Shown here: in pieces, positions 7,944 to 45,240 of the stretch
How the letters are laid out: each line of letters starts with the position of its first letter
How positions within the stretch are numbered: position 1 is the first letter of the stretch
NCBI GenBank assembly: GCA_965248695.1
Contig: CBDFKD010000002.1
Coordinates: 5,013,201 to 5,077,200, forward strand
Direction: 5' to 3'
Origin: Acidobacteriota bacterium
Lineage (GTDB): Bacteria; Acidobacteriota; UBA890; WLXD01
Length of the DNA: 64,000 nt
Position numbers and translations under genes: made by a program
Notes under the pieces: generated by a model
The model's input: the letters and a program-made list of their open reading frames with translations, nothing else
What the model was told of the DNA's origin: nothing
The model's database searches: none

Positions 7944-8044
7944 CGTTGATCTCCTTTCACCGGGGCAAAAGACCTGTATCCCGTGGGCTAGGGGGCTGCC
8001 GATTCACTCGACAAGAGCGTCAACGAACTCACGACTCCCGGCTA

Positions 8045-8317
8045 GTGGCCTGTAACAGGGAATTCGATAGTGCCGTGGTGGCGAGATGGGGTCGAATGCA
8101 AGGCGCTCCGACGAGTCGATGTTGGTGCATCTTGGAGGAGGAGCAACGCCGCAGGCGGCCCGATCTCGCCGCCATCCTGCGGACAGATGGGCAGTTGCGG
8201 GCGATATCGGCGTTGCGACTCGTCGACGATGCCCGACGGCATCGCCATCCTCGCCGCGCCTCGATCTCGCCCGCAAATCCCATCTGCGGCACTATCGAAT
8301 TCCCTGTTACAGACCAC
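8045..8317. mobile_element. MITE-like non-autonomous element with 34-bp terminal inverted repeats and TA target duplication
   Basis: TIR GTGGCCTGTAACAGGGAATTCGATAGTGCCG at 8045-8075. Its reverse complement sits at 8285-8317 with 1 mismatch. TA at 8043-8044 and again at 8318-8319. The interior is also palindromic, so both strands encode RHYRIPCYRPL. No transposase. Confidence 0.5.
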
Positions 8318-9240
8318 TAGAAATCTCTCGCATGGACCAAACGGGTATCCATATCCGCTGGCGCGTCCAGGCCGAAGGCTCGCGCGACCGTTGCTGCCGT
8401 GACGGTAACGGCCAGCGAGCCGAGCTTACCGCGCGCGATTCCATCACCCCAGAGAATCCAAGGGACCCTGTTGTTCGAACTGCCCCTACGATCGTGAGAT
8501 CGGCCCTCGCCGCCGTGATCGGCGGTAACGATGACGATAGAGGGACCCGGTAGCGCCCCACTCTCTAGCACGGCAATCAGGCCGCCGAGCAACGCGTCCA
8601 CTCCGCGCAGCGCCAGCGTCTGTTTCTGATGCCCCCACCCGAACTCGTGTCCTGCTCGATCGACGTCCGGCAAGTGCACGAGCATCAGGTTCGGCTGTTC
8701 TTGTATCAGGTACTCGCGCGCCTCTCGGGCAACGATCGCGGCCGGGACATCCCGGACCTCCATTCGATCGATCGCCGGCGACAAGGCGATGTGCAGCAGC
8801 TTGGTCTTGCCGGCGAAGAATGCTGTCTTCAGCCCGGCCTCGTGGGCGACGTCGAAGACCGTTGCCGCCTCGACCAACCCCCGATCCGCCTCGTAGGCGT
8901 TCCACGTTACTCGGTGGATCGGAGGCTCGACGCCCGTCACGATCGAGGTGATCGCCGGCAGTGTAACGCTCGGCTGCACCGTTCGAGCGTCGAGCGTTGC
9001 AGCGCCCTCGCTGATCAGCCGGCTGAGCGTGGGCGCATGTTCCTTGGAGATCAGGTCGGACCGCAACCCATCCAGAATCACGATGATGACGTGACCGTCG
9101 GACCCGATCGGCGCCAGCTGGTAGGGACGCCCTGGCCGCTCGTTCACCGTGGAGCAGGCCACGAGCGTGGCGACGATCGGTGTCGCTGCGGCGAGGCTGA
9201 CGAGGAACCTGAATCGCCGCCGGGAAAAGGCAGGCGTCAT
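8317..9240 (-). CDS. Nucleotide pyrophosphatase/phosphodiesterase (alkaline-phosphatase superfamily) lipoprotein
   Basis: 307 aa. Signal and lipobox (LVACS). VIIVILDGLRSD and TADHGG motifs typical of type I phosphodiesterase/NPP. Confidence 0.65.
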   Translation of the reverse strand: MTPAFSRRRFRFLVSLAAATPIVATLVACSTVNERPGRPYQLAPIGSDGHVIIVILDGLRSDLISKEHAPTLSRLISEGAATLDARTVQPSVTLPAITSIVTGVEPPIHRVTWNAYEADRGLVEAATVFDVAHEAGLKTAFFAGKTKLLHIALSPAIDRMEVRDVPAAIVAREAREYLIQEQPNLMLVHLPDVDRAGHEFGWGHQKQTLALRGVDALLGGLIAVLESGALPGPSIVIVTADHGGEGRSHDRRGSSNNRVPWILWGDGIARGKLGSLAVTVTAATVARAFGLDAPADMDTRLVHARDF

Positions 9241-9396
9241 GTGCCTCTTCTGATAGACGGCTCGGGGTGGCCCAGTCGACTGCCGGGTTCCATTGCGTTT
9301 CCGAGAAGGGGAGCGAACATAGACATACGAAGCCTACCGCGCGATCGTGGGAGGCTCCAAGGGAGCGACAGAGGAGACCCGCATCGGGCGCGCTTG

Positions 9397-10467
9397 CTAG
9401 AAGATTACGGAGCCTTGGCCACGCTCGTCGATCATCTTCTGGATATGCGCTACGAGCAGCTCTCGTCGTTCCAGGAGCGCGCCCATCTGTTCCGAAACGA
9501 GGTAAGCGTCGATCGCCGCGCGGATCTGGTCGTCGGTCACCTGCTGTAGCAGCTCCCACATGCGCGGACTGCACCAGACGATCTCATCGCCGTAGCGCAG
9601 GTCCTTGTGCACCTGGAATGCGCGTGAGTGATCGATCATCCAAAGTGCCCATTCAGTGTCGATAAGGTAGTTGCCGCGGTTCCGGTCGTCGTTGAAGATC
9701 AAGCTGTCGAATATGCGCATCGCCTGGATCTGGCGCTGCCAGTCGGCCGTCACGGGTGGAGGTCCCGCCGCTCCTTGGCCGGCCTCGCCGAGCGTGCGCT
9801 CTATCCAGAGCTGCACGCTTCCATCGATGCCGTTGACCCTGCGGCACACGGTGGGCGGTACGTTGTCGAGCTCGAACAAGCGCGCCATCTGATAGGCGGC
9901 GCACTGGCCCTTGTAGCTATCGTAGTAGCGGCTGAAGCTGCGGCCGTTCATGCGGCGGGCCCGCGAGACTCTGTCGATCTCGTGAAACGCGCCGTGCGCT
10001 CGAACACCGTCACGCTCGAGTACCAGGCGCTTGATCCCAGTGACGCCGATACCGACGTTCTCCGATGACACGACAAGGGCCGTACGCAGGAACTCCGTCG
10101 CCTCGTCGTAGGTCCGAAAGGGTAGCGGCGTACCATTCGGCCCCGGCCACGGGCGGGCAATCTCTGCATCGTCCTGAGATCGATGCACCCAGGCGAGCGT
10201 GCTCGTAGTGAGCGCCGGCGATAGCACCAGAGCCACGGCGGTGGCCGCGAGCAGAACACTCCGGGCCGCCTTCACGCGGCGCGCGGTCGGATGGGTTCTC
10301 TCTTGAGCGCTGATGCCGGGCTCCACGGCGCTATCACAGAGGGGTGGGCGAAGCGCCTGAAGCCTATCGCCAGAGCCGGCGAGATCCAACGGAGACGGCA
10401 GGGTAGACACGACCGGCCTTCGCCGGGGAATACCTGCCCTACTTGTGCTTCTCGCGTCGCTCCCCAT
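9397..10467 (-). CDS. Secreted protein with a PI3/PI4-kinase (type II PI4K-like) catalytic-loop motif
   Basis: Motif IFDSLIFNDDRNRGNYLID resembles the PI4KII loop DYIIRNTDRGNDNWLI. The likely true start is the GTG near 10275, giving the signal-like VKAARSVLLAATAVALVL. The N-terminal extension is uncertain. Confidence 0.4.
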   Translation of the reverse strand: MGSDARSTSRAGIPRRRPVVSTLPSPLDLAGSGDRLQALRPPLCDSAVEPGISAQERTHPTARRVKAARSVLLAATAVALVLSPALTTSTLAWVHRSQDDAEIARPWPGPNGTPLPFRTYDEATEFLRTALVVSSENVGIGVTGIKRLVLERDGVRAHGAFHEIDRVSRARRMNGRSFSRYYDSYKGQCAAYQMARLFELDNVPPTVCRRVNGIDGSVQLWIERTLGEAGQGAAGPPPVTADWQRQIQAMRIFDSLIFNDDRNRGNYLIDTEWALWMIDHSRAFQVHKDLRYGDEIVWCSPRMWELLQQVTDDQIRAAIDAYLVSEQMGALLERRELLVAHIQKMIDERGQGSVIF

Positions 10468-35809: not shown

Positions 35810-36790
35810 TGACCCGCTTCCGTGGACACCTTATGGCTAACGCCAAAGGAGTCTGCGATGCGAAGAACACGACCGCCTTATCCGCCGGAGTTTCGCCGGC
35901 AGATCGTCGAGCTAGCGCGGGCAGGACGCAGCGTGCAGGAGCTCGCCGAGGAGTTCGAGCCCTCGTACTGGACGATCCGTACATGGATCAAGCAGGCGGA
36001 TCGAGATGACGGGCTTAGCGCGGCTGGCCTGAGTAGCCAGGACAAGGAAGAACTACGGCGGCTACGCCGGGAAAACCGCCAGTTGAAGACGGAGCGGGAG
36101 ATCCTGGCAAAAGCCGCGGCCTGGTTCGCTCGGGAGACCGGCGCAGTACCCAAGAAGTCTTCGGGTTCGTGAGAGCTCACCAGGCCTGCTATCCGATCGC
36201 CACGATGTGCCGAGTGCTGGAGGTCTCCACCAGCGGCTACTACGCGTGGCGACAACGCCCTAGCAGTATGCGAGCACGACAGGATGCACAGCTGCGTGAG
36301 CAGATCGAGACGATCCATCGACTTAGCCGTGCGACCTATGGCGTGCCTCGGGTACACGCGGAACTGGCCGCCGACGGCGTTCGGGTGGGGCGCAAACGCG
36401 TGGCACGGCTGATGAGCCAGGCGGGGCTGGAGGGTGTCAGCCGCCGCCGTCGGCTGCGCACGACGCGCCGCGGTACTGACGCGCAGCCGGTGCCCGATCT
36501 GGTGAAACGTGACTTCGCGGTCGGTGCACCCGATCGCCTGTGGGTTGCCGACATCACGTACGTCTCTACGTGGTCGGGGTTCTTGTACCTGGCGGTGGTG
36601 ATGGATGCCTTCAGCCGGCGGGTGGTGGGCTGGTCGATGGCCAACCACCTGCGTACCGAACTGGTGCTTGAGGCGCTCAACATGGCGATCTGGCAACGCC
36701 GACCTGAGAGCGTGATCCACCACTCTGATCAGGGCACGCAATACACCTCGATCGCCTTCGGCCACCGCTGCAAGCAGCTCGGTGTACGTC
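35810..36790 (+). mobile_element. IS3-family insertion sequence, 3'-truncated (IS#1)
   Basis: OrfA (HTH, leucine zipper) and OrfB (DDE integrase core, 209 aa, lacking its C-terminus) in a -1 overlap. The candidate IRL TGACCCGCTTCC begins near 35810. The right end is replaced by IS#2. Confidence 0.55.
35858..36172 (+). CDS. IS3-family transposase OrfA
   Basis: MRRTRPPYPPEFRRQIVELARAG...ENRQLKTEREILAKAAAWFA. Confidence 0.8.
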   Translation: MRRTRPPYPPEFRRQIVELARAGRSVQELAEEFEPSYWTIRTWIKQADRDDGLSAAGLSSQDKEELRRLRRENRQLKTEREILAKAAAWFARETGAVPKKSSGS

Positions 36791-36798
36791 TGACCTGA
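36169..36798 (+). CDS. IS3-family transposase OrfB (truncated)
   Basis: DDE domain motifs LWVADITYV and HSDQGTQYTS. It ends early where IS#2 is inserted. Confidence 0.75.
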   Translation: MRAHQACYPIATMCRVLEVSTSGYYAWRQRPSSMRARQDAQLREQIETIHRLSRATYGVPRVHAELAADGVRVGRKRVARLMSQAGLEGVSRRRRLRTTRRGTDAQPVPDLVKRDFAVGAPDRLWVADITYVSTWSGFLYLAVVMDAFSRRVVGWSMANHLRTELVLEALNMAIWQRRPESVIHHSDQGTQYTSIAFGHRCKQLGVRLT

Positions 36799-36856
36799 CC
36801 CCCGAAAACGGATCCGGATGTAATCTCACGATCTGGGTCAAGAACGGGAGGTCAGA

Positions 36857-37135
36857 ATGCCGAGTAAGAGGCACAGCGCCGAGCAGATCGTACGCAAGCT
36901 CCGGGAGGCTGAGGTGGAGCTGGCTCGAGGGGCGACGGTCAAGGATGCCTGCCGCAAGCTAGCAATCACCGAGCACACCTACTACCGGTGGCGGCGAGAG
37001 TACGGCGGACTGAAGCTCAACCAGGCCAGAAAGCTCAAGCAACTGGAGAAGGAGAATGCCCGGCTCAAGAGGCTGGTGGCGGAAAAGGAACTCGACCTGT
37101 CGATCCTGAAGGAAGTGGCGGAGGGAAACTTCTGA
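36857..37135 (+). CDS. IS3-family transposase OrfA
   Basis: MPSKRHSAEQIVRKLREAEV...ENARLKRLVAEKELDLSILKE. Confidence 0.8.
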   Translation: MPSKRHSAEQIVRKLREAEVELARGATVKDACRKLAITEHTYYRWRREYGGLKLNQARKLKQLEKENARLKRLVAEKELDLSILKEVAEGNF

Positions 37136-38016
37136 GCCCAGCTCGGCGGCGAGAGGCGGTGGCACATGTACGGGGGCGGCTGGGCGTCTCGGAGAGGCGG
37201 GCGTGTCGGGTACTGAAACAACCACGCACGACACACCGGTACGTGCCAAGAGAGCCGCAACAGGAGCAGATTTTGACGGAGCGGATCGTGGATTTAGCCC
37301 GACAGTACGGGCGCTACGGATATCGGAGGGTGACAGCGTTGCTGCGCATGGAGGGCTGGTCCGTGAACCACAAACGAGTGCAGCGTATCTGGCGGCGCGA
37401 AGGGCTGAAAGTACCGAGAAAACAGCCCAAACGAGCACGGCTGTGGCTGAGCGATGGCTCCTGCATCCGGCTGCGCCCACAGCACCGGGATCATGTCTGG
37501 GCGTATGACTTCCTGCACCACCGGACGCACGACGGTCGGGCTATGAGGCTGCTGACGATCGTCGATGAGTACACACGAGAAAGCCTGGCGATCCATGTAG
37601 CACGGAAGCTCAACTCTGAGGACGTGCTGGAGCAGCTCGGGAGGTTGTTCGTACACCGGGGCATACCTGAGCACATCCGGTCGGATAACGGACCAGAGTT
37701 CACCGCCGAGGCGGTTCGCGACTGGCTGGGCCGGTTGGGCGTGGGGACGCTGTTCATCGAGCCGGGCTCGCCGTGGGAGAACGGTTACGTGGAGAGCTTC
37801 AACGGCAAGCTACGCGACGAGCTGCTGGATGGAGAGATCTTCTACACGCTCAAGGAGGCAAAGGTTCTGATCGAGAGATGGCGTCAGCACTACAACCGCA
37901 TGCGACCGCACAGCTCGCTGAGCTATCGGCCGCCCGCACCCGAAGCGACGTTGTTGAAGCCGGCTGCGCTCCGCTTCGCCGGCCTCAACAACCTCTTGTC
38001 AGCACCGAGTTACTGA
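37132..38016 (+). CDS. IS3-family transposase OrfB (via -1 frameshift from OrfA)
   Basis: DDE motifs VWAYDFLH, IRSDNGPEFT and PWENGYVESFNGKLRDE. This frame is open from 36988. Confidence 0.75.
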   Translation: MSPARRREAVAHVRGRLGVSERRACRVLKQPRTTHRYVPREPQQEQILTERIVDLARQYGRYGYRRVTALLRMEGWSVNHKRVQRIWRREGLKVPRKQPKRARLWLSDGSCIRLRPQHRDHVWAYDFLHHRTHDGRAMRLLTIVDEYTRESLAIHVARKLNSEDVLEQLGRLFVHRGIPEHIRSDNGPEFTAEAVRDWLGRLGVGTLFIEPGSPWENGYVESFNGKLRDELLDGEIFYTLKEAKVLIERWRQHYNRMRPHSSLSYRPPAPEATLLKPAALRFAGLNNLLSAPSY

Positions 38017-38400: not shown

Positions 38401-38486
38401 GCGCCCGAGATCCATCGCCAGCGGAGGCGAGATCCAGCCGGTGGGGCAGGGGATGCACCGGAGGACAACGGCGAAATAGAGGGAGT
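38401..38486. repeat. Repeat copy f: partial R-core plus trailer immediately 3' of tRNA-Glu
   Basis: gcgcccgagatcca / ggcgagatccagccgg, then the trailer caacggcgaaatagagggag that is shared with copy c. Confidence 0.5.
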
Positions 38487-38560
38487 AGCCCCAACGGGAT
38501 TTGAACCCGTGCCGCCGGCTTGAAAGGCCGGTGTCCTAACCTGGCTAGACGATGGGGCCA
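38487..38560 (-). tRNA. tRNA-Glu (anticodon UUC)
   Basis: Reverse complement GGCCCCATCGTCTAGCCAGGTTAGGACACCGGCCTTTCAAGCCGGCGGCACGGGTTCAAATCCCGTTGGGGCTA. Cloverleaf with anticodon loop CTTTCAA. CCA not encoded. Confidence 0.8.
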
Positions 38561-38606
38561 CCCTGGAAAACCGCTGTGGCGAGGCCGGGTCACTAGGTAG
38601 AAGTGT

Positions 38607-38679
38607 GGGCCGTCAGGGGATCGAACCCTGGACACCCGGCTTAAAAGGCCGGTGCTCTGCCAACTGAGCTAACGGCCCG
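38607..38679 (-). tRNA. tRNA-Lys (anticodon UUU)
   Basis: Reverse complement GGGCCGTTAGCTCAGTTGGCAGAGCACCGGCCTTTTAAGCCGGGTGTCCAGGGTTCGATCCCCTGACGGCCCA. Anticodon loop CTTTTAA. Confidence 0.85.
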
Positions 38680-38717: not shown

Positions 38718-40313
38718 CTATTGCACGATCACGATTGCGTCGTTCGACGCAATCGCATCGCCGCAGCTGTTGCGGGCGATGATCCGAACGTAGTACGTGC
38801 CCGGACCGACCCCCGTCGCCATGAAACTGGTGTTCGGGCTGCTGAGATCTCGACCTGGAATGAGGTCGGATGCGCCGTCTCCTGACCCCGCCTGCAAGAT
38901 GTAGGTGGTGGGCGCGTTGGCACCGCCCTGGCTGCTCCATGTCAGGGTCACGGTTGTTCCGCTGACGCCGGAGGAAACTGTCACCGCGCTCGGCGGGCCG
39001 GTACACGATCCTCCTGCTGGCCCTCCGACATCCAATTCCACCTCATTCGATGGGCCGCTCGTGTCCACGAGATTGGTGGCATGAACACGTAGGAAGTAGG
39101 TTCGACTCCCGACGTTGTGGGTGACCAAGCTCGTCACATTGCCGACTCTCGAGATGACGATGTCACTGCCACCGGACGACGATCCGACGTGCAAAATGTA
39201 CTCGGTTGGAGCGCCACCCGAGCCCGGTGGGCTCCATGAGATCGTTACGGTCGAGCCGTCTGCGGACGCCGTCAGATTCGACGGAGCGCCTGGAGCGCTT
39301 TCTTCACCGCCACCGGTACCGTTCCCCGATCGGTAGTTCGCCACGATCCCGGCAGTCTCCTCGATGACGCGAGCGTTGTTAGAGATGCCTCCAACGCCTA
39401 TCGGGCCCGCCTCCGGCCCGCTGTAGGAAATGTTCGGATTCGAGAAGACAAGGAGCTCCAAGCACACCCGACGGAACCGGTCCACGCACTGGTCCACATA
39501 CGACATGACCGTTTGCCACGACTTGTTTGCCGACGGCCCGATGTGGACATGCCCGTGTCCGTCGCTGGAGTAGGCGCTGCCCTGCACGTACGGGTCGTGC
39601 CCCGGTCCCCATGTTGTGGCCGATCTCGTGAGCGAACGTATAGTTGGACACGCAAAAGAATGACGTCACGCTGAACGCCCATTCCGGGAACCCTGGCGAG
39701 ACCCAAGCGACCCCGCAGAAGTCGATTCCGTAGGTGAGCATGGCGACGAGGTCTGCCGCGTACCGTTCCCTGAGGGCGCCGACCGACTCCGACTTCCTGA
39801 GCCATGACAAGTCGTTGCTCATGGAGGACGATTCCGTGTAGGCGATCTCCTGCGTGTTGGCCAGGGTCAACCGAGCTCCTGAGCCACTGTTGCTGAAGGC
39901 GCCGTTCGTCTGCGCAACCCCCAGAAACGCCAGATTCTGAATGGCTGTCGTCCCACCGGCGCGCTGGCGCGCCTGCGGCGTGTACAGCACGAGGATCCTG
40001 ATGTCGCCGGCGCCATCCTTGGTCGTGGGGGTCGAGGTCTTTGTCTCCGGCTTCGCTGTGTCGCTCGGACGAGCGGGGAGGTGCTCCGGCGGAAGCAGCG
40101 CGCGGTCAATCTCCAGAACCCGATGGGTGCCGGCCCGTCCGGGTCTGACGCTGAAGGCCCGTTGACCGTCGCTGATCTCTGCTGTCAGCACTCCTTGGTG
40201 AACGACGAGGATGGCCTCCTGGTACGGTCGCCCTGGCTGGCAGAAACGAGCAGCAGCGCGAGCGTGATGGTCGGCACCGTTGTAGGGGACCGAAGTAGAT
40301 TGCCCAGGTCCAT
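38718..40313 (-). pseudogene. Secreted zinc metalloprotease (HEIGHNMG zincin, reprolysin/M12B-like) with two C-terminal FN3-like domains, broken by two frameshifts
   Basis: Signal peptide MDLGNLLRSPTTVPTITLALLLVSASQG in one frame. The catalytic domain with TFAHEIGHNMG is in a second frame, with the shift near 40226. FN3 repeats are in a third frame, with the shift near 39600 (atggggAccgggg). RBS GGGAG precedes the ATG at 40313. Confidence 0.6.
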
Positions 40314-40344
40314 GACGCTCCCTGAGGCCAGGTAGTTGACAACT

Positions 40345-40377
40345 GAAGCGTAGCGCCGGAGCAGTTCAGATCCAACG
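40345..40377. repeat. R-core repeat copy e
   Basis: gaagcgtagcgccggagcagttcagatccaacgg, lying ~35 bp upstream of the metalloprotease start. Confidence 0.5.
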
Positions 40378-40502
40378 GCAGGAGCGAGGCGAGAGCGCAG
40401 TGCGGACTGCGGAAGATGCGCCGGTGAACGTCGGCGTTTGCAACCAGTGTTCTACCCTGGGCGCCCGAACAGTGGATCAGGTCGCGGCGAAAGGAGACAT
40501 TC

Positions 40503-41538
40503 ATGGAGTATCGAGCCCTCGGCAGGACTGGCTTGCAGGTTTCCTGTATCGCCTTCGGAACCGACAACTTCCTCGACCCGACGCCGGAGGACGAGTCTCG
40601 GCGCATGCTCGACCGGGCGCTTGATGCGGGGGTGAACTTTCTGGACACGGGCGACGTGTACGCCGGCGGCGAAGCCGAGAAGATGATCGGCCGTGCGCTC
40701 AAGGACAGCGGCCCGGCGGCATGAGGTATTGCTGTCGACGAAGGTCGACCACTGCATGAGCATTCCGGGCCAATCGCTCGACGAGCACAGCCCGACGTCT
40801 GAGCCGAACCGACACGGTCTCTCGAAGTACAACGTCATCCGCGCCTGCGAGAACTCGCTGCGCAGCTTCCAGACCGACACCATCGACGTTTACTACGCTC
40901 ATAGGCACTCTCCCGAGATCCCACTCGACGAGACTCTTTCGGCGCTCGACTACCTGGTGCGCTCCGGCAAGGTCCGCTATGTCGGCACCTCGACGCATCC
41001 GGCGTGGGTGCTAATGGAGACGCTGGCGATCGCCAAGGAGCTCGGATACCAGCGAATCGTCACCGAGCAGCCGCCCTACAACCTGCTGGATCGGCGCATC
41101 GAGAACGAATTGATCCCGATGGCGCAGAAGCACGGCATCGGACTGATTACCTGGGCGCCGATGGGAATGGGAGTGCTGGCTGGCCGCTACGACGACGCCG
41201 ACGATCTACCTCAGGACTCTCGCGCCGTCTACAGGGGCGGCTTCTACCGCGACCGCGTCACGCCACGCGGCGTGGAGGTGGGGAAGCGCTTCGGTGCTAT
41301 CGCACGCGATCTGGGTTTGACATCGGCACAGCTGGCGCTTCTGTGGACCAAGGACCAGCTCGGGGTGACTGCGCCGCTGATGGGACCGCGAACGATGCAG
41401 CATCTCGAGGACGCCCTGCCGGTGGCCGACATGACGCTCGACGACGAGACGCGCGCCGCCTGTGACGCCCTCGTGCCTCCGGGCTCCGCCGTGGCGGACT
41501 TCCACAACACGTCGGGTTGGATGCGGATGTCGGTCTGA
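40503..41538 (+). CDS. Aldo/keto reductase interrupted by a frameshift near 40720
   Basis: N-terminus MEYRALGRTGLQVSCIAFGT...GRALKDSG, then a frame change, then RRHEVLLSTKV...YYAHRHSP...GTSTHPAW...ITWAPMGMGVLAGRY. Confidence 0.65.
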
Positions 41539-41559
41539 GGCCCGTAGACGCCAGCGTGC

Positions 41560-41696
41560 TCCTCGGTTACCCCACATGACCGCTCCTGACTAAGAAATGT
41601 GCAGGATGCTTTCTTCTTGCTTTAAGGTATCTAAAAGAAGTAATTAATCACTTATAGAACTCAATTCTGACTTCTAATAACTACTCCGTGAAGTGA
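41560..41696 (+). promoter_or_regulatory. AT-rich (~30% GC) leader/promoter region upstream of the REC-GGDEF-EAL gene
   Basis: ttcttcttgctttaaggtatctaaaagaagtaattaatcacttatagaactcaattctgacttctaataactac sits in a genome that is otherwise ~67% GC. Confidence 0.4.
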
Positions 41697-42150
41697 ATGA
41701 GCAAGTCGAGTTCCAAGAAGTCCAGGGGCCGTCAGGTCGACGTGAGCCAGGGAGAAGAAAGCCCGATCATTCTCGTGGCCGACGACGACCCGATGATCCG
41801 CCTCACCGCGCGGACGACCCTGGAGAAGTGGGGCATGCGGGTAGCGGAGGCCGACGACGGGCCGGCCGCGCTCGCCGCACTTGACGATCACTACCCGTGG
41901 CTCGTGCTCCTCGATGTGATGATGCCCGGTATGGATGGTTTCGAGGTCTGCCGTCGGTTGCGGGAGTCCGAGGATCACTCACGCATTCCGGTCATGATGC
42001 TGACAGGGCTGGATGATACCGAGTCGATCCGGCGTGCCTATGACGCAGGCGCCACCGATTTCTTCACCAAGCCGGTGAATTGGATGATTCTCGCGGAGCG
42101 GGTGCGGTACATGCTGCGCGCCGCGTATGACAGCGGCCGTCTGGAACTGT
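41697..42150 (+). CDS. Response-regulator receiver (REC) domain: the N-terminal part of a REC-PAS-GGDEF-EAL gene split by IS256 insertion
   Basis: CheY-like IILVADDDP...D(52)VMMPGMDGF...K. The reading frame is interrupted at ...GRLELW by the IS. Confidence 0.7.
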
Positions 42151-43514
42151 GGATCCGGCCCGAGTCCTGTGGAAATAAAGATGGCGTAACCTCCGAGTAG
42201 GAAAAACACAAAGCCGCCACGAGCGGCAGGAGGCTACGCCGTGAAGCAGGTTAGCACGGAGGGAACCGGGCTCGTCGAGTTCCGGCAGGACGTACAGGCG
42301 CTGTTGCGCACCAGGATCCGCGAGGCGATCCAGATGACGCTTGACGAGGAGCTCACCGAGGCGCTGGGTTGCGACCGATACGAGCGCAACGGGCAGCGGC
42401 GAGGCTACCGCAACGGCAGCCAAAGGCGTCGGGTGACGACAGCCCAAGGGCTCCAGGAGCTGGACATACCGCGGGGGCGCATCGTGGGGCAAGACGGCAG
42501 CACCCGAGAGTTCCGCAGCGCGATCCTGCCACGGTACGCACGGCGAGCCCGGCAGGTGGACGAGGCGATCCTGGGAGCATACCTGGCGGGAGCCAACACC
42601 CGGCGGATCCGCAAGGCGCTCTCTCCGCTGCTGGGCAAGGCGCACCTGACCAAGAGCACGATCTCCAGGGTGGTGGGGCGCCTGAAGGCGTACTTCGAGC
42701 GCTGGAGACAGCGAGATGTGTCAGGCGAGCGGTACTGGATCCTGTATTTGGACGGGTTCCATCTGAAGGTCAGGCTGGCGAGGCGGGTCGTGTCGGCGCC
42801 GGTACTGGCGGTGCTCGGGGTCCAGCCCGACGGCCAGAAGGTGTTGGTAGCGTTGCAGTTGGCGGTCTCGGAGGCAGCGGTGCACTGGCAAGGACTGATC
42901 GAGTCGCTGGTGAGACGAGGGCTGCAGGCGCCGGAGGTGCTGATCGCCGACGGCCACAAGGGCCTGGCCAAGGCGATCGAGGTATGGCCCGATGTGTCGG
43001 TGCAGCGGTGCACACAACACAAGTGGAGCAACTTACGCGACCACTGCCCGGTTCATGCACGTGCGGAGATGAAGCGGGACTGGGATGCGATCGTCCGGGC
43101 CGATGACGGCAACCAGGCCAGAGCCGCCTACGCCGCCTTCGTACGCAAGTGGTCGACCCTCGTGCCCGCCGTGGCCCGGAGCCTGCAGGAGGCCGGCTTG
43201 AACCTGCTGACTTTCTACCAGTTCCCGAAGCCGATGTGGAAGACGCTGCGCACCACCAACGCCCTCGAGAACCTGAACCGGGAGTTCCGTCGTCGTACCA
43301 AGACGCAGGGCTCGTTCTCGACCGAGGCCGCTGGGGTGACGTTGCTGTGGAGCCTGGTCGCCTTCGGCCAGATCCGCATGCGACGCATCGATGGCCACCG
43401 GTTCTTGGCTCAGCTCACGTGCGGCCCCGACAAACAGGCCGCCTAACCGATAGGATCATCCGTCGTCGCGGAGGAGACGCTCATCCAATTTCCACGACAT
43501 TCGGGGCACATCCC
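42151..43514 (+). mobile_element. IS256-family insertion sequence with an 8-bp target-site duplication GGAACTGT
   Basis: Imperfect terminal IRs ggatccggcccgagtcctgtggaaataaagatggcg / gggatgtgccccgaatgtcgtggaaattggatgagcg. TSD copies at 42143-42150 and 43515-43522. 1364 bp. Confidence 0.8.
42241..43446 (+). CDS. IS256-family (Mutator-type) transposase
   Basis: 401 aa. YLDGFHLKVR, IADGHKGL, QRCTQHKWSNL and TTNALENLNREFRRRTK motifs. Confidence 0.9.
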   Translation: MKQVSTEGTGLVEFRQDVQALLRTRIREAIQMTLDEELTEALGCDRYERNGQRRGYRNGSQRRRVTTAQGLQELDIPRGRIVGQDGSTREFRSAILPRYARRARQVDEAILGAYLAGANTRRIRKALSPLLGKAHLTKSTISRVVGRLKAYFERWRQRDVSGERYWILYLDGFHLKVRLARRVVSAPVLAVLGVQPDGQKVLVALQLAVSEAAVHWQGLIESLVRRGLQAPEVLIADGHKGLAKAIEVWPDVSVQRCTQHKWSNLRDHCPVHARAEMKRDWDAIVRADDGNQARAAYAAFVRKWSTLVPAVARSLQEAGLNLLTFYQFPKPMWKTLRTTNALENLNREFRRRTKTQGSFSTEAAGVTLLWSLVAFGQIRMRRIDGHRFLAQLTCGPDKQAA

Positions 43515-45240
43515 GGAACTGTACGAGCGGATGCTCGAAGACGCCGGCCTCGCCCACTGGGAGTCGCCCGACGCGACCGAGAAGGTGATGGACTTCTCTC
43601 AGCGTTCCAAGGAGCTTCTGAGGCTCCCCTGGGCGACGAGCAGATGCGCCGAGCGCGAGTTCATGGAGCGGGTGCTTGCCAGCGATCGCGGAGAGTTAGA
43701 AGCGGTGCGCACGAAGGCCCGGGAGTTTGGCCGCGCATACACCATCGAGTATCAACTCTACGATCGCAACGATGACACGCTGTTCGTCATAGAGCGTGGC
43801 GAGATGCTCCGGGACGACCGCGACCGCGAGCCGAAGCTGGTCGCCACATGTCAGGACATCACTGCCCGTCGCAAGAGCGAGGAGCGGATCGAACGGCTGG
43901 CGAACTCCGATGCGCTCACCGGGCTACCGAATCGGCGTCTGCTCGACGACCGTTTCCAGCAAGCACTTCACCGGGCCGGCCGCCAAGAGCGACCGCTAGC
44001 GTGTCTGTTCCTGGATCTGGATCGTTTCAAGCAGGTCAACGACAGTCTCGGGCACTCGGCCGGCGACGAGTTGCTCGCCGAGGCGGCGAAGCGCCTACTA
44101 GGCTGCGTACGCGACGTCGACACCGTGGCCAGGTTCAGTGCGGAGATCGAGCCGACGGTGGCGCGCTTCGGGGGCGACGAGTTCGTCATCCTGCTCGAGG
44201 CGATGCGCAACGAAGACGACGCAGAATTGGTGGCTCGGCGCATCCAAGAGCTGTTTGCTTTCCCATTCTCCATCGGCGGCTACGATGATCTCCGAGTAAC
44301 ACCGAGTGTCGGGATCTCTCTGTTCCCGCGCGACGGTACGGACTCCGAGACGTTGCTCAAGCACGCCGACGCGGCGATGTATGAGGCCAAGGAGCGTGGC
44401 GGCAAGGACTACAGCTTCTTCAGCCAGGAGATCGACGACAAAGCGCAACGCCGGCTTTCCATCGAACAGGCGTTGCACCGTGCGCTCGACAACAACGAGT
44501 TCTTTCTCCACTACCAGCCGCTGTTCTCGGCCGCTGACGGGAGCCTCACTGGAGTCGAGGCGCTGCTGAGGTGGACCGGTCCGGAACACGGCATGGTCTC
44601 GCCTGCGGAGTTCCTGCCGATCGCTGAAGACACCACCCTGATCCTGGCCATCGGCGATTGGGTGTTGGAGCGGTCCTGCGCCGATTGGCGGGCTCTCTTC
44701 GACGCGGGGGTTCCACCGCTGCGAGTAGCGGTCAATATCTCGGCGCTGCAGCTGCGGCGTGGTGACCTCGTGGCGCGCATTCGATCCGTACTCGGCAGCA
44801 CCGGCTTCCCGGCGCAGTGCCTCGAGCTCGAGCTTACCGAGAGCCTTCTCATTGGCGACGCTTTCCACGTCCACGACGCGCTGGACAAGCTCAAGGAGTT
44901 GGATGTCAACATCGCCCTCGACGACTTCGGCACCGGCTACTCATCGCTGAGCGTCCTCAAGCAGTTTCCTATCGATCGAATCAAGATCGACCGCTCGTTT
45001 ATCAGGAACCTGACCGTCCACCCCGAAAACGAGAGCATTGTCAGCGCCATCATCGCGATGGCCGCCGGGTTGCGGATGCAGGTGAGCGCCGAGGGCGTCG
45101 AGCTCGACGAGCAGCTGAGCTTTCTCCGTAAGCGCGGCTGCGATGAAGTCCAGGGGTATCTGCTGGGGCACCCGCTGCCACTGGAGGAGCTGGTAGAGCA
45201 GCTCTTCGATCCTGACATTCGCTTGCCGGTGGCCTCCTGA
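43515..45240 (+). CDS. PAS-GGDEF-EAL diguanylate cyclase/phosphodiesterase: the C-terminal part of the IS-disrupted gene
   Basis: The frame continues in phase across the TSD (...ELYERMLEDAGLAHWE). GGDEF motif intact (RFGGDEF). EAL motif (EALLRW) and DDFGTGYSS. Confidence 0.8.

Follow-up and report, generated by a model that had tools for sequence, protein, structure and literature searches.

An IS256-family insertion sequence interrupts a REC-(weak PAS)-GGDEF-EAL response-regulator gene at a restorable 8-bp target-site duplication

The window, by which we mean the whole stretch of 64,000 nucleotides analyzed here, contains a response-regulator gene that is interrupted by an insertion sequence (IS) and preceded by an AT-rich island. 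The features of the locus are as follows.

41551 to 41740, no strand: AT-rich island upstream of the split gene and extending into its 5′ end, with a minimum of 32% GC per 100 nt.
41697 to 42150, plus strand: 5′ fragment of the gene with the REC domain, comprising native codons 1 to 151 and base 1 of codon 152.
42143 to 42150, no strand: left target-site duplication (TSD), GGAACTGT.
42151 to 43514, plus strand: IS256-family insertion sequence, 1,363 bp to its canonical end at 43513, plus an extra C at 43514.
42151 to 42176, plus strand: left terminal inverted repeat, GGATCCGGCCCGAGTCCTGTGGAAAT, 26 nt.
42241 to 43446, plus strand: intact transposase gene (tnp), the one open reading frame of the element, with a GTG start preceded by AGGAGG and a product of 401 aa.
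43488 to 43513, plus strand: right terminal inverted repeat, ATTTCCACGACATTCGGGGCACATCC, 26 nt.
43515 to 43522, no strand: right TSD, GGAACTGT, with the extra C directly before it.
43523 to 45240, plus strand: 3′ fragment of the gene with the PAS-like, GGDEF, and EAL regions, running from bases 2 and 3 of codon 152 to the stop.

To assign the element to a family, its transposase was compared with profiles and a known structure. The protein matched NCBIfam profile NF033543 (transpos_IS256) with 296.7 bits (E = 1.9e-88), where the cutoff is 150 bits, and Pfam PF00872 with an E value of 1.3e-82, covering profile positions 19 to 368 of 379. The ISCth4 transposase TnpA (PDB 6xg8) was matched at 8.3e-41, and aligned blocks included LYLDGF with VFIDAI, IADGHKG with CADALSG, and TTNALENLN with TTNTIESLN. 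By alignment to the ISCth4 blocks, the predicted DDE triad is complete and consists of D171, D237, and E343, one in each block. Members of the family are 1.2 to 1.5 kb long and carry one open reading frame, inverted repeats of roughly 20 to 40 bp, and TSDs of 8 (sometimes 9) bp; they transpose by a copy-out/paste-in mechanism. We conclude that the sequence of the element confirms its membership in the IS256 family, with a transposase of the DDE/Mutator type.

The boundaries of the element rest on two sources, its inverted repeats and its homology to 30+ related copies. A repeat search indicated that the terminal inverted repeats are imperfect, with 19 of 26 positions paired (73% complementary), and both repeats are kept in relatives. 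Homology to the related copies L003 to L035 started exactly at 42151 and ended at 43513 or 43514. Moreover, 28 related copies, all in Acidobacteriota metagenome-assembled genomes (MAGs), have in common a left end of GGATCCG...GTGGAAAT and a right end of ATTTCCAC...GGGGCACATCC, the canonical right end in relatives being the ...GGGGCACATCC that falls here at 43513. One MAG holds >25 related copies, and another holds a fragment of the element that is 99.7% identical. No second copy was found in the 64-kb window, and thus a composite transposon was ruled out.

The element is bracketed by a target duplication. When both strands of the window were searched, GGAACTGT occurred only twice, once at each junction and identical at 8 of 8 positions; with boundaries that were fixed independently, an identical in-register 8-mer is expected by chance with a frequency of ∼1.5e-5. 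Perfect, abutting 8-bp TSDs were found in 15 related copies, and the TSDs of 16 copies indicated no target preference. An earlier note on this DNA had described a clean insertion with an intact TSD flanking the element. The repeats are indeed adjoined by the terminal inverted repeats and the duplication is intact, but one extra C (43514) separates the canonical right end from the right GGAACTGT copy. The extra base breaks the perfect abutment of end and TSD shown by most relatives, which counts against the explanation preferred below, and with it the TSD could instead be read as 9 bp long with a single mismatch (T/C-GGAACTGT). The extra C sits in a CCC run. Elsewhere in the window, a neighboring aldo-keto reductase (AKR) gene is frameshifted in a C run near 40715, and therefore the assembly may hold homopolymer errors.

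The element entered the linker between REC and PAS, interrupting codon 152 behind its first base, and has the same orientation as the gene. Deletion of 42151 to 43522 left 2,172 nt, a length divisible by 3, with no stop other than the one at the end; the encoded product of 723 aa reads ...AAYDSGRLELYERMLEDAGLAHWE... across the junction, as the earlier note had proposed. The predicted length of ∼726 aa was slightly too high. If translation instead starts at GTG 41742, which matches the start of the orthologue, the restored protein is 708 aa. The expected empty-site sequence, in which the IS and one TSD copy are removed, is CGTCTGGAACTGTACGAGCGG.

Uninterrupted orthologues supported the reconstruction. 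Two intact proteins, P0001 (708 aa) and P0002 (710 aa), are 82% and 68% identical to the restored product, and both DNA and protein alignments were gap free over the junction. The intact orthologue at locus L001 is contiguous across the site: the 5′ fragment aligned by blastn to L001 positions 8002 to 8407 (83%) and the 3′ fragment to positions 8404 to 10095 (84%), such that the two blocks overlap by 4 nt at the TSD and positions 8404 to 8407 align to both TSD copies. Loci L001 and L002 have only the gene itself in common with the window, and synteny was unusable for polarizing movement of the gene.

The domain content of the restored protein is consistent with a response regulator with c-di-GMP output. 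The REC domain matched Pfam Response_reg (PF00072) over residues 25 to 136 (4.1e-28), and residues D29/D30, D73, T103, and K125 vary little or not at all in an alignment of the orthologous group (A2). Pfam also indicated a GGDEF domain from residue 278 (1e-44) and an EAL domain over residues 467 to 702 (2.6e-70). The PAS match was weak, as PAS_3 aligned to residues 197 to 260 with 19.2 bits (E = 0.0014), under the Pfam cutoff of 25.6; a precomputed PF08447 match exists in most orthologues, P0001 being one that lacks it. Enzymatic activity is predicted from invariant columns of the alignment, which include the GGDEF motif (residues 368 to 372), R348/D351 of the RxxD I-site, and E497-A-L, along with the further EAL catalytic residues N556, E588/E591, D618/D619, K639, E675, and Q695. 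The interrupted copy keeps the conserved residue at every invariant catalytic or phospho-acceptor column. An insertion of 11 to 14 aa between the I-site and the GGDEF motif (TVARF...TVARF) was considered as a lesion of the split copy and rejected, as it is common to the whole orthologous group. We conclude that the insertion turned a gene for a single REC-(weak PAS)-GGDEF-EAL polypeptide into a disrupted allele.

The AT-rich island was previously suggested to indicate foreign origin or H-NS-like regulation. The low GC content is real, at 39% for 41560 to 41696 versus 64.5% for the window, and the island is the only strong low-GC stretch in the 64 kb (mean, 64.5% GC; standard deviation, 4.8; 100-nt windows). 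Foreign origin was not borne out, however, as the orthologous loci have equivalent islands: in L001 and in L002 alike, the sole low-GC island immediately precedes the orthologous transcription unit. The body of the split gene is 63% GC and genome-like. An Rfam search of the island returned a match at chance level only (E = 0.82). A conserved operator was suggested by MAFFT alignment of the three islands (TTGC..TAAAAGT..CTTATAGAA), but the local-alignment score of 16.0 was no better than that of shuffled sequences (15.4 to 16.1 ± 2.2 to 2.5), and the idea was therefore dropped. Because orthologous loci also carry an island, the stretch seems to serve regulation of the locus rather than to mark foreign origin. 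It is probably a promoter/leader region.

The earlier description of the insertion as recent is plausible. The TSD copies are identical, the transposase reading frame is intact, and both gene halves are free of stops and frameshifts. Moreover, with P0002 as the outgroup, lineage-specific amino acid changes numbered 28 in the split copy and 35 in the intact orthologue (P = 0.45), indicating no excess. Neither half shows decay, and thus the insertion is probably young on the scale of the 16% nucleotide divergence that separates the gene from its nearest orthologue. In the protein and metagenome collections searched, no near-identical uninterrupted allele was found, the nearest intact orthologue being the one at 82% identity. 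Protein look-ups and a metagenome scan likewise gave no further genome in which the gene is split in this way; the best among the matches listed in the scan was 49% identical, and generic motifs (MMPGMDGF and DRFKQVND) dominated. Exact look-ups of the transposase and the two gene fragments gave no record.

One alternative to simple disruption is functional gene fission, in which the insertion would have been kept because it uncoupled output from receiver. The stand-alone REC domain would serve as a sink for phosphate or as a single-domain regulator, and a constitutive PAS-GGDEF-EAL protein would be made from Met155 on read-through or IS-derived transcripts. Consistent with fission, the cut falls exactly in the interdomain linker and both fragments lack signs of decay, but a recent insertion explains intact fragments equally well. 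Expression of the 3′ fragment bears on the same question. Its longest open reading frame, of 569 aa, begins at ATG 43531, 9 nt past the TSD, and the transposase gene lies 84 nt away in the same direction and the same reading frame, with one TAA between. Thus, the start codon that the earlier note attributed to the downstream piece is present, but it is Met155, an internal residue conserved in P0001 to P0003, and no Shine-Dalgarno motif (AGGA, GGAG, or GAGG) was found in the 20 nt before it, unlike the start of tnp. IS-borne outward promoters, also proposed earlier, were not supported: the plus strand of 41400 to 43700 contained no sigma70-like promoter and no terminator-like site. IS256-family ends provide promoter halves in other hosts (PMC7780238), but the right end here has no −35-like hexamer where ISCth4 and IS256 carry theirs. 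The scan covered sigma70-type consensus only and Acidobacteriota promoters are poorly known, and therefore an outward promoter could still exist. No significant RNA structure was predicted from the tnp stop to ATG 43531 (z = −0.88). Any downstream transcript is likelier to arise by read-through from the co-directional transposase gene than from an outward promoter. No other genome in the records searched carries the same split. We consider functional fission unlikely.

A second alternative is that the insertion is one phase of a reversible ON/OFF switch, in which the IS inserts and then precisely excises with one TSD copy, toggling the c-di-GMP regulator. The TSD copies are identical, the frame is exactly restorable, and the target belongs to the c-di-GMP class of genes, which are generally linked to biofilm and motility. 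Precise excision of IS elements, however, is rare and arises as a by-product of replication slippage, with no dedicated mechanism. A precedent is given in PMC2816298 and in Ziebuhr 1999, cited there, where alternating insertion and excision of IS256 in the staphylococcal ica genes results in biofilm phase variation. Against a switch at the present locus, only one sequence state is known, the collections searched yielded no empty-site allele, and related TSDs lack target preference, which together make switching very unlikely. The broader proposal, that the insertion rewires c-di-GMP signaling in an IS-rich Acidobacteriota lineage, whether as a reversible switch of the IS256 type or by stable fission, is quite unlikely; if it were true, the receiver would be released as a protein of its own, and so would a PAS-GGDEF-EAL enzyme independent of phosphorylation, the latter transcribed by read-through of the transposase gene. 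Finally, an assembly artifact, with a repeated IS misplaced inside the gene or a contig chimeric at the IS, is extremely improbable, for although IS elements are a well-known cause of misassembly in MAGs, the AKR frameshift hints at an imperfect consensus, and the extra C sits in a homopolymer, a chimera would not place the same 8 bp of the gene in direct orientation at each junction, nor would its flanks rejoin into one conserved reading frame collinear with orthologues.

The preferred explanation, to which we assign high probability, is that a single IS256-family copy transposed into the linker between REC and PAS-GGDEF-EAL and split the response-regulator gene. Entry of the element duplicated the 8 bp of target, GGAACTGT, after which the full-length regulator would no longer be made. 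One predicted remaining product is a 167-aa receiver-only protein with 151 native residues and 16 encoded by the IS, where the interrupted frame ends at TAG 42198 to 42200. The other is the 569-aa PAS-GGDEF-EAL piece, which would be weakly expressed at best: its transcription would depend on read-through of the transposase transcript or the native transcript and not on an IS outward promoter, and its translation would need to start at an internal Met without a ribosome-binding site. With the full-length regulator lost and only a REC piece and a weak output piece left, phosphorylation control of c-di-GMP turnover by the split protein would be lost as well. We infer that the insertion caused loss of function of the split gene.

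For annotation, the open reading frames at 41697 to 42200 and 43531 to 45240 belong together as the two halves of a disrupted response-regulator gene, and 42151 to 43513 is an IS256-family element. The locus also provides a data point for an IS lineage active in Acidobacteriota. Second-messenger signaling genes can be knocked out or uncoupled by elements of this type. If expression of the split products were demonstrated, the locus would offer a modest case, arisen in nature, of a mobile element uncoupling protein domains. Gene disruptions of this kind are ordinary, and current understanding is unchallenged.

Comparison with known systems places both the element and its target. Like IS256 of Staphylococcus and Enterococcus and like ISCth4, the element encodes a single DDE/Mutator-type transposase of ∼400 aa, and it shares with the family a length of about 1.3 to 1.5 kb, imperfect terminal inverted repeats, 8-bp target duplications, and multiple copies in host genomes. 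A conserved subterminal motif is also shared with ISCth4, being GTGGAAAT here and TGTAAA in ISCth4 (PMC7780238). Unlike those elements, it has a probable Acidobacteriota host, a transposase that is only a distant relative of that of ISCth4 (E = 8e-41), and one extra base between right end and TSD. Its ends also have no counterpart of the sigma70-like −35 and −10 hexamers from which IS256 and ISCth4 form a circle-junction or hybrid promoter (PMC7780238). As with IS256 in icaC and icaA, the IS lies inside a gene expected to influence biofilm or motility and the TSD permits precise restoration, but the target is a signaling gene rather than one for exopolysaccharide synthesis and is known here from one sequence state. 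The GGDEF-EAL tandem of the restored protein matched MorA (4rnh) at 1.9e-119. The best partial NCBIfam match of the protein was DibA, and its score was under every NCBIfam equivalog cutoff; thus, it is an orthologue of no named protein. The GGDEF motif, RxxD I-site, and EAL catalytic residues are kept as in MorA, RbdA/PA0861 (5xgb), DosP, and, for the REC-GGDEF part, PleD, and the REC domain carries phospho-acceptor residues as in known REC-PAS-GGDEF-EAL proteins. The protein differs from the MorA, RbdA, DosP, and PleD set in its weak PAS match, in the 11- to 14-aa insertion between I-site and GGDEF motif, and in the interruption of its gene.

Two copies of the octamer GGAACTGT, at 42143-42150 and 43515-43522, enclose a segment of 1,364 bp, and the 64-kb window has no further copy on either strand. 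The 8-bp target-site duplication (TSD) claimed in the earlier note is thereby confirmed, and the repeats flank the terminal inverted repeats (IRs) of an insertion sequence (IS) with the following features:

42151-42176, left IR, 26 nt, 73% complementary to the right IR
42241-43446, + strand, transposase ORF, 401 aa, GTG start preceded by AGGAGG; the only long ORF of the segment
43488-43513, right IR, 26 nt, 73% complementary to the left IR

By three independent measures, the predicted ORF product is a transposase of the IS256 family, to which the earlier note had assigned the element: Pfam Transposase_mut (PF00872, 1.3e-82), the NCBIfam model "IS256 family transposase" (NF033543, 296.7 bits against a curated cut-off of 150), and ISCth4 TnpA (6xg8, 8.3e-41). 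The blocks holding the DDE residues align with ISCth4 TnpA, placing those residues at D171, D237, and E343. To our knowledge, ISCth4 TnpA is the only solved IS256-family transposase.

A scan in which each species was represented by one genome returned 34 loci encoding relatives of the transposase with 63-99% amino acid identity, all in Acidobacteriota MAGs and at least 27 of them in a single MAG, CBDFKO01. When the IS with 300-nt flanks was compared with these loci by blastn, homology started at 42151 and stopped at 43513/43514, which establishes the ends of the element without recourse to the repeats. The 28 copies that retain both ends start GGATCCG(G/T)CCCGAGTC(C/T)TGTGGAAAT and finish ATTTCCAC..CATTCGGGGCACATCC, and perfect 8-bp direct repeats, with no target sequence common among them, abut the ends in 15. 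No second copy was found within the 64-kb window. CBDFKO01 has, at the end of a contig, a 372-nt fragment that matches the IS at 99.7% identity. The same MAG contains seven copies (L008-L013 and L033) of a ~1,267-bp derivative of a related IS, all with the same ~98-bp internal deletion of the transposase gene (equivalent to window 43081-43178) and at least five with TSDs of their own, which points to the spread of a non-autonomous variant by means of transposase provided in trans.

Deletion of 42151-43522 restored an open frame of 2,172 nt with one terminal stop and the junction ...AAYDSGRLELYERMLEDAGLAHWE..., exactly as the earlier note had written it. The ~726 aa proposed there was approximately right, the actual length being 723 aa from ATG 41697 or 708 aa from GTG 41742, the latter aligned with the start of the uninterrupted orthologue P0001. 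The reconstructed protein contains REC (25-136, 4.1e-28), GGDEF (1e-44), and EAL (467-702, 2.6e-70) domains, and a weak PAS_3 match (197-260, E 0.0014) below the Pfam cut-off. Database searches returned P0001 (708 aa, 82% identity, 98% coverage), a second uninterrupted orthologue, P0002 (710 aa, 68% identity), and the same architecture in thousands of more distant proteins of ~720 aa. The closest solved structure to the GGDEF-EAL part is MorA (1.9e-119), and no NCBIfam equivalog cut-off was reached, so that this part has no orthologue among named enzymes.

At L001, a locus with the uninterrupted gene, 8002-8407 matches window 41743-42148 and 8404-10095 matches 43517-45208, indicating that the two gene halves are contiguous there, their matches sharing 4 nt precisely at the duplicated target. 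DNA and protein alignments are gap-free across the junction (GRLELYERMLED in the window versus GRMQLYERMLED in P0001), and the IS interrupts codon 152 (Tyr) after its first base, within the linker that joins REC to the PAS-like region. Columns invariant across ten homologues are all kept, among them the phospho-acceptor set of REC, the RxxD I-site, the GGDEF motif, and the EAL catalytic residues. With P0002 as outgroup, lineage-specific amino acid changes numbered 28 in the window copy and 35 in intact P0001 (p = 0.45), giving no sign of decay in the interrupted copy. The insertion is best read as recent when set against the divergence of the gene from its nearest orthologue. A near-identical allele without the insertion appeared neither in protein collections nor among the metagenome matches listed.

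Judged from the relatives, the canonical right end (...CACATCC) is at 43513, and an extra C (43514) precedes the right-hand GGAACTGT. The base could have been brought along from the donor flank, as a few related copies (L007 and L018) also carry two stray bases at a junction. It could also be a homopolymer error in the CCC run; the neighboring aldo-keto reductase gene is shifted by one base in a C-run near 40715, which suggests that the consensus may be imperfect. Finally, the duplication could be of 9 bp with a single mismatch, TGGAACTGT at the left end versus CGGAACTGT at the right, the base at that position being T in L001. The reconstruction is the same under all three readings because 1,363 + 9 = 1,364 + 8.

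An AT-rich island at 41551-41740 falls to 32% GC and is the sole strong low-GC island of the window, in which 100-nt windows average 64.5% GC (sd 4.8). For this region the earlier note suggested foreign origin or H-NS-like regulation, of which foreign origin is not supported: the body of the split gene is 63% GC, like the genome, and L001 and L002, the latter the locus of the 68%-identical orthologue, each have just one low-GC island, lying directly upstream of the gene in L001 and, in L002, directly upstream of the Hpt-REC-kinase operon of which the gene is the last member. AT-richness is thus a trait of the regulatory region of the locus rather than a mark of recent foreign origin. Sequence similarity among the three islands was no greater than in shuffled controls, and the window island had no Rfam match. 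The apparent operon of L002 (266-4867) encodes Hpt, REC, a MASE3 histidine kinase, and, last and overlapping the kinase gene by 4 nt, REC-PAS-GGDEF-EAL; in the window and L001, the REC-PAS-GGDEF-EAL gene stands alone among unrelated neighbors.

Just upstream, the aldo-keto reductase gene (40500-41538) is split between two frames, with ~60 N-terminal residues (MEYRALGRTGLQVS...ALKDSG) in one and the remainder (RRHEVLLSTKV...) in the other. The break, near 40710-40720, is at a C-run (GGCCCGG), and the gene is either a pseudogene or the product of a homopolymer assembly error. An IS-rich patch of two adjoining IS3-family elements (35822-38016) precedes the IS256-family insertion by ~4 kb, and the features of this neighborhood are as follows:

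35822-36798, first IS3-family element: OrfA 35822-36172, truncated OrfB 36169-36798
36857-38016, second IS3-family element: OrfA 36857-37135, OrfB 36988-38016 with HTH_21, rve, and rve_3
38486-38559 and 38606-38678, - strand, two tRNA genes adjoining the IS3 cluster
38718-40702, - strand, three overlapping ORFs: fn3 domains, a reprolysin-like metallopeptidase, and an N-terminal piece without Pfam match; they resemble a single large gene interrupted by two frameshifts

Elsewhere, a ~280-nt element with long terminal IRs and further internal IRs occurs at window 8042-8320 and L001 12486-12766, in non-syntenic places and at 84% identity. Its arms are 77% complementary in the window (8042-8114 and 8248-8320) and perfect over 34 nt in L001 (CTAGTGGCCTGTAACAG...). 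It lacks both a clear ORF and an Rfam match, and its appearance is that of a MITE or structured RNA element.

After insertion, the 5′ ORF stops at TAG 42198-42200, and its predicted product is a receiver-only protein of 151 native and 16 IS-encoded residues. The 3′ piece retains ATG 43531, which is Met155 and is conserved as an internal Met in P0001 and P0002 and in a third homologue, P0003. The transposase gene and the 3′ fragment are co-directional and 84 nt apart, which makes read-through transcription into the fragment plausible. No AGGA, GGAG, or GAGG motif was found in the 20 nt before ATG 43531, and efficient translation of the fragment is not indicated by the sequence. The two ORFs also share one reading frame, with a single TAA and 28 open codons between them (43444-43531), probably a coincidence of one-in-three chance. 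No terminator-like site was found on the + strand of 41400-43700, nor any promoter-like site in a sigma70-type scan of the same interval, although Acidobacteriota promoters are poorly defined. The outward promoters that the earlier note suggested for the IS are thus unsupported, and the right IR carries GGGGCA at the position of the −35 hexamer of ISCth4 (PMC7780238). The best reading is that insertion would have simply inactivated, or uncoupled, the regulator. A reversible switch, such as IS256 provides in the ica genes of staphylococci (PMC2816298), and functional gene fission are unlikely alternatives.

The element fits the IS256 family as described for IS256 and ISCth4 (PMC7780238) in its length, in having one ORF and 8-bp TSDs, and in its imperfect IRs, which contain a conserved subterminal motif. 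We conclude that the event is a typical insertion of the IS256 family, in which a familiar kind of element acts in a familiar way, and that the element itself may be an unnamed member of the family from Acidobacteriota.
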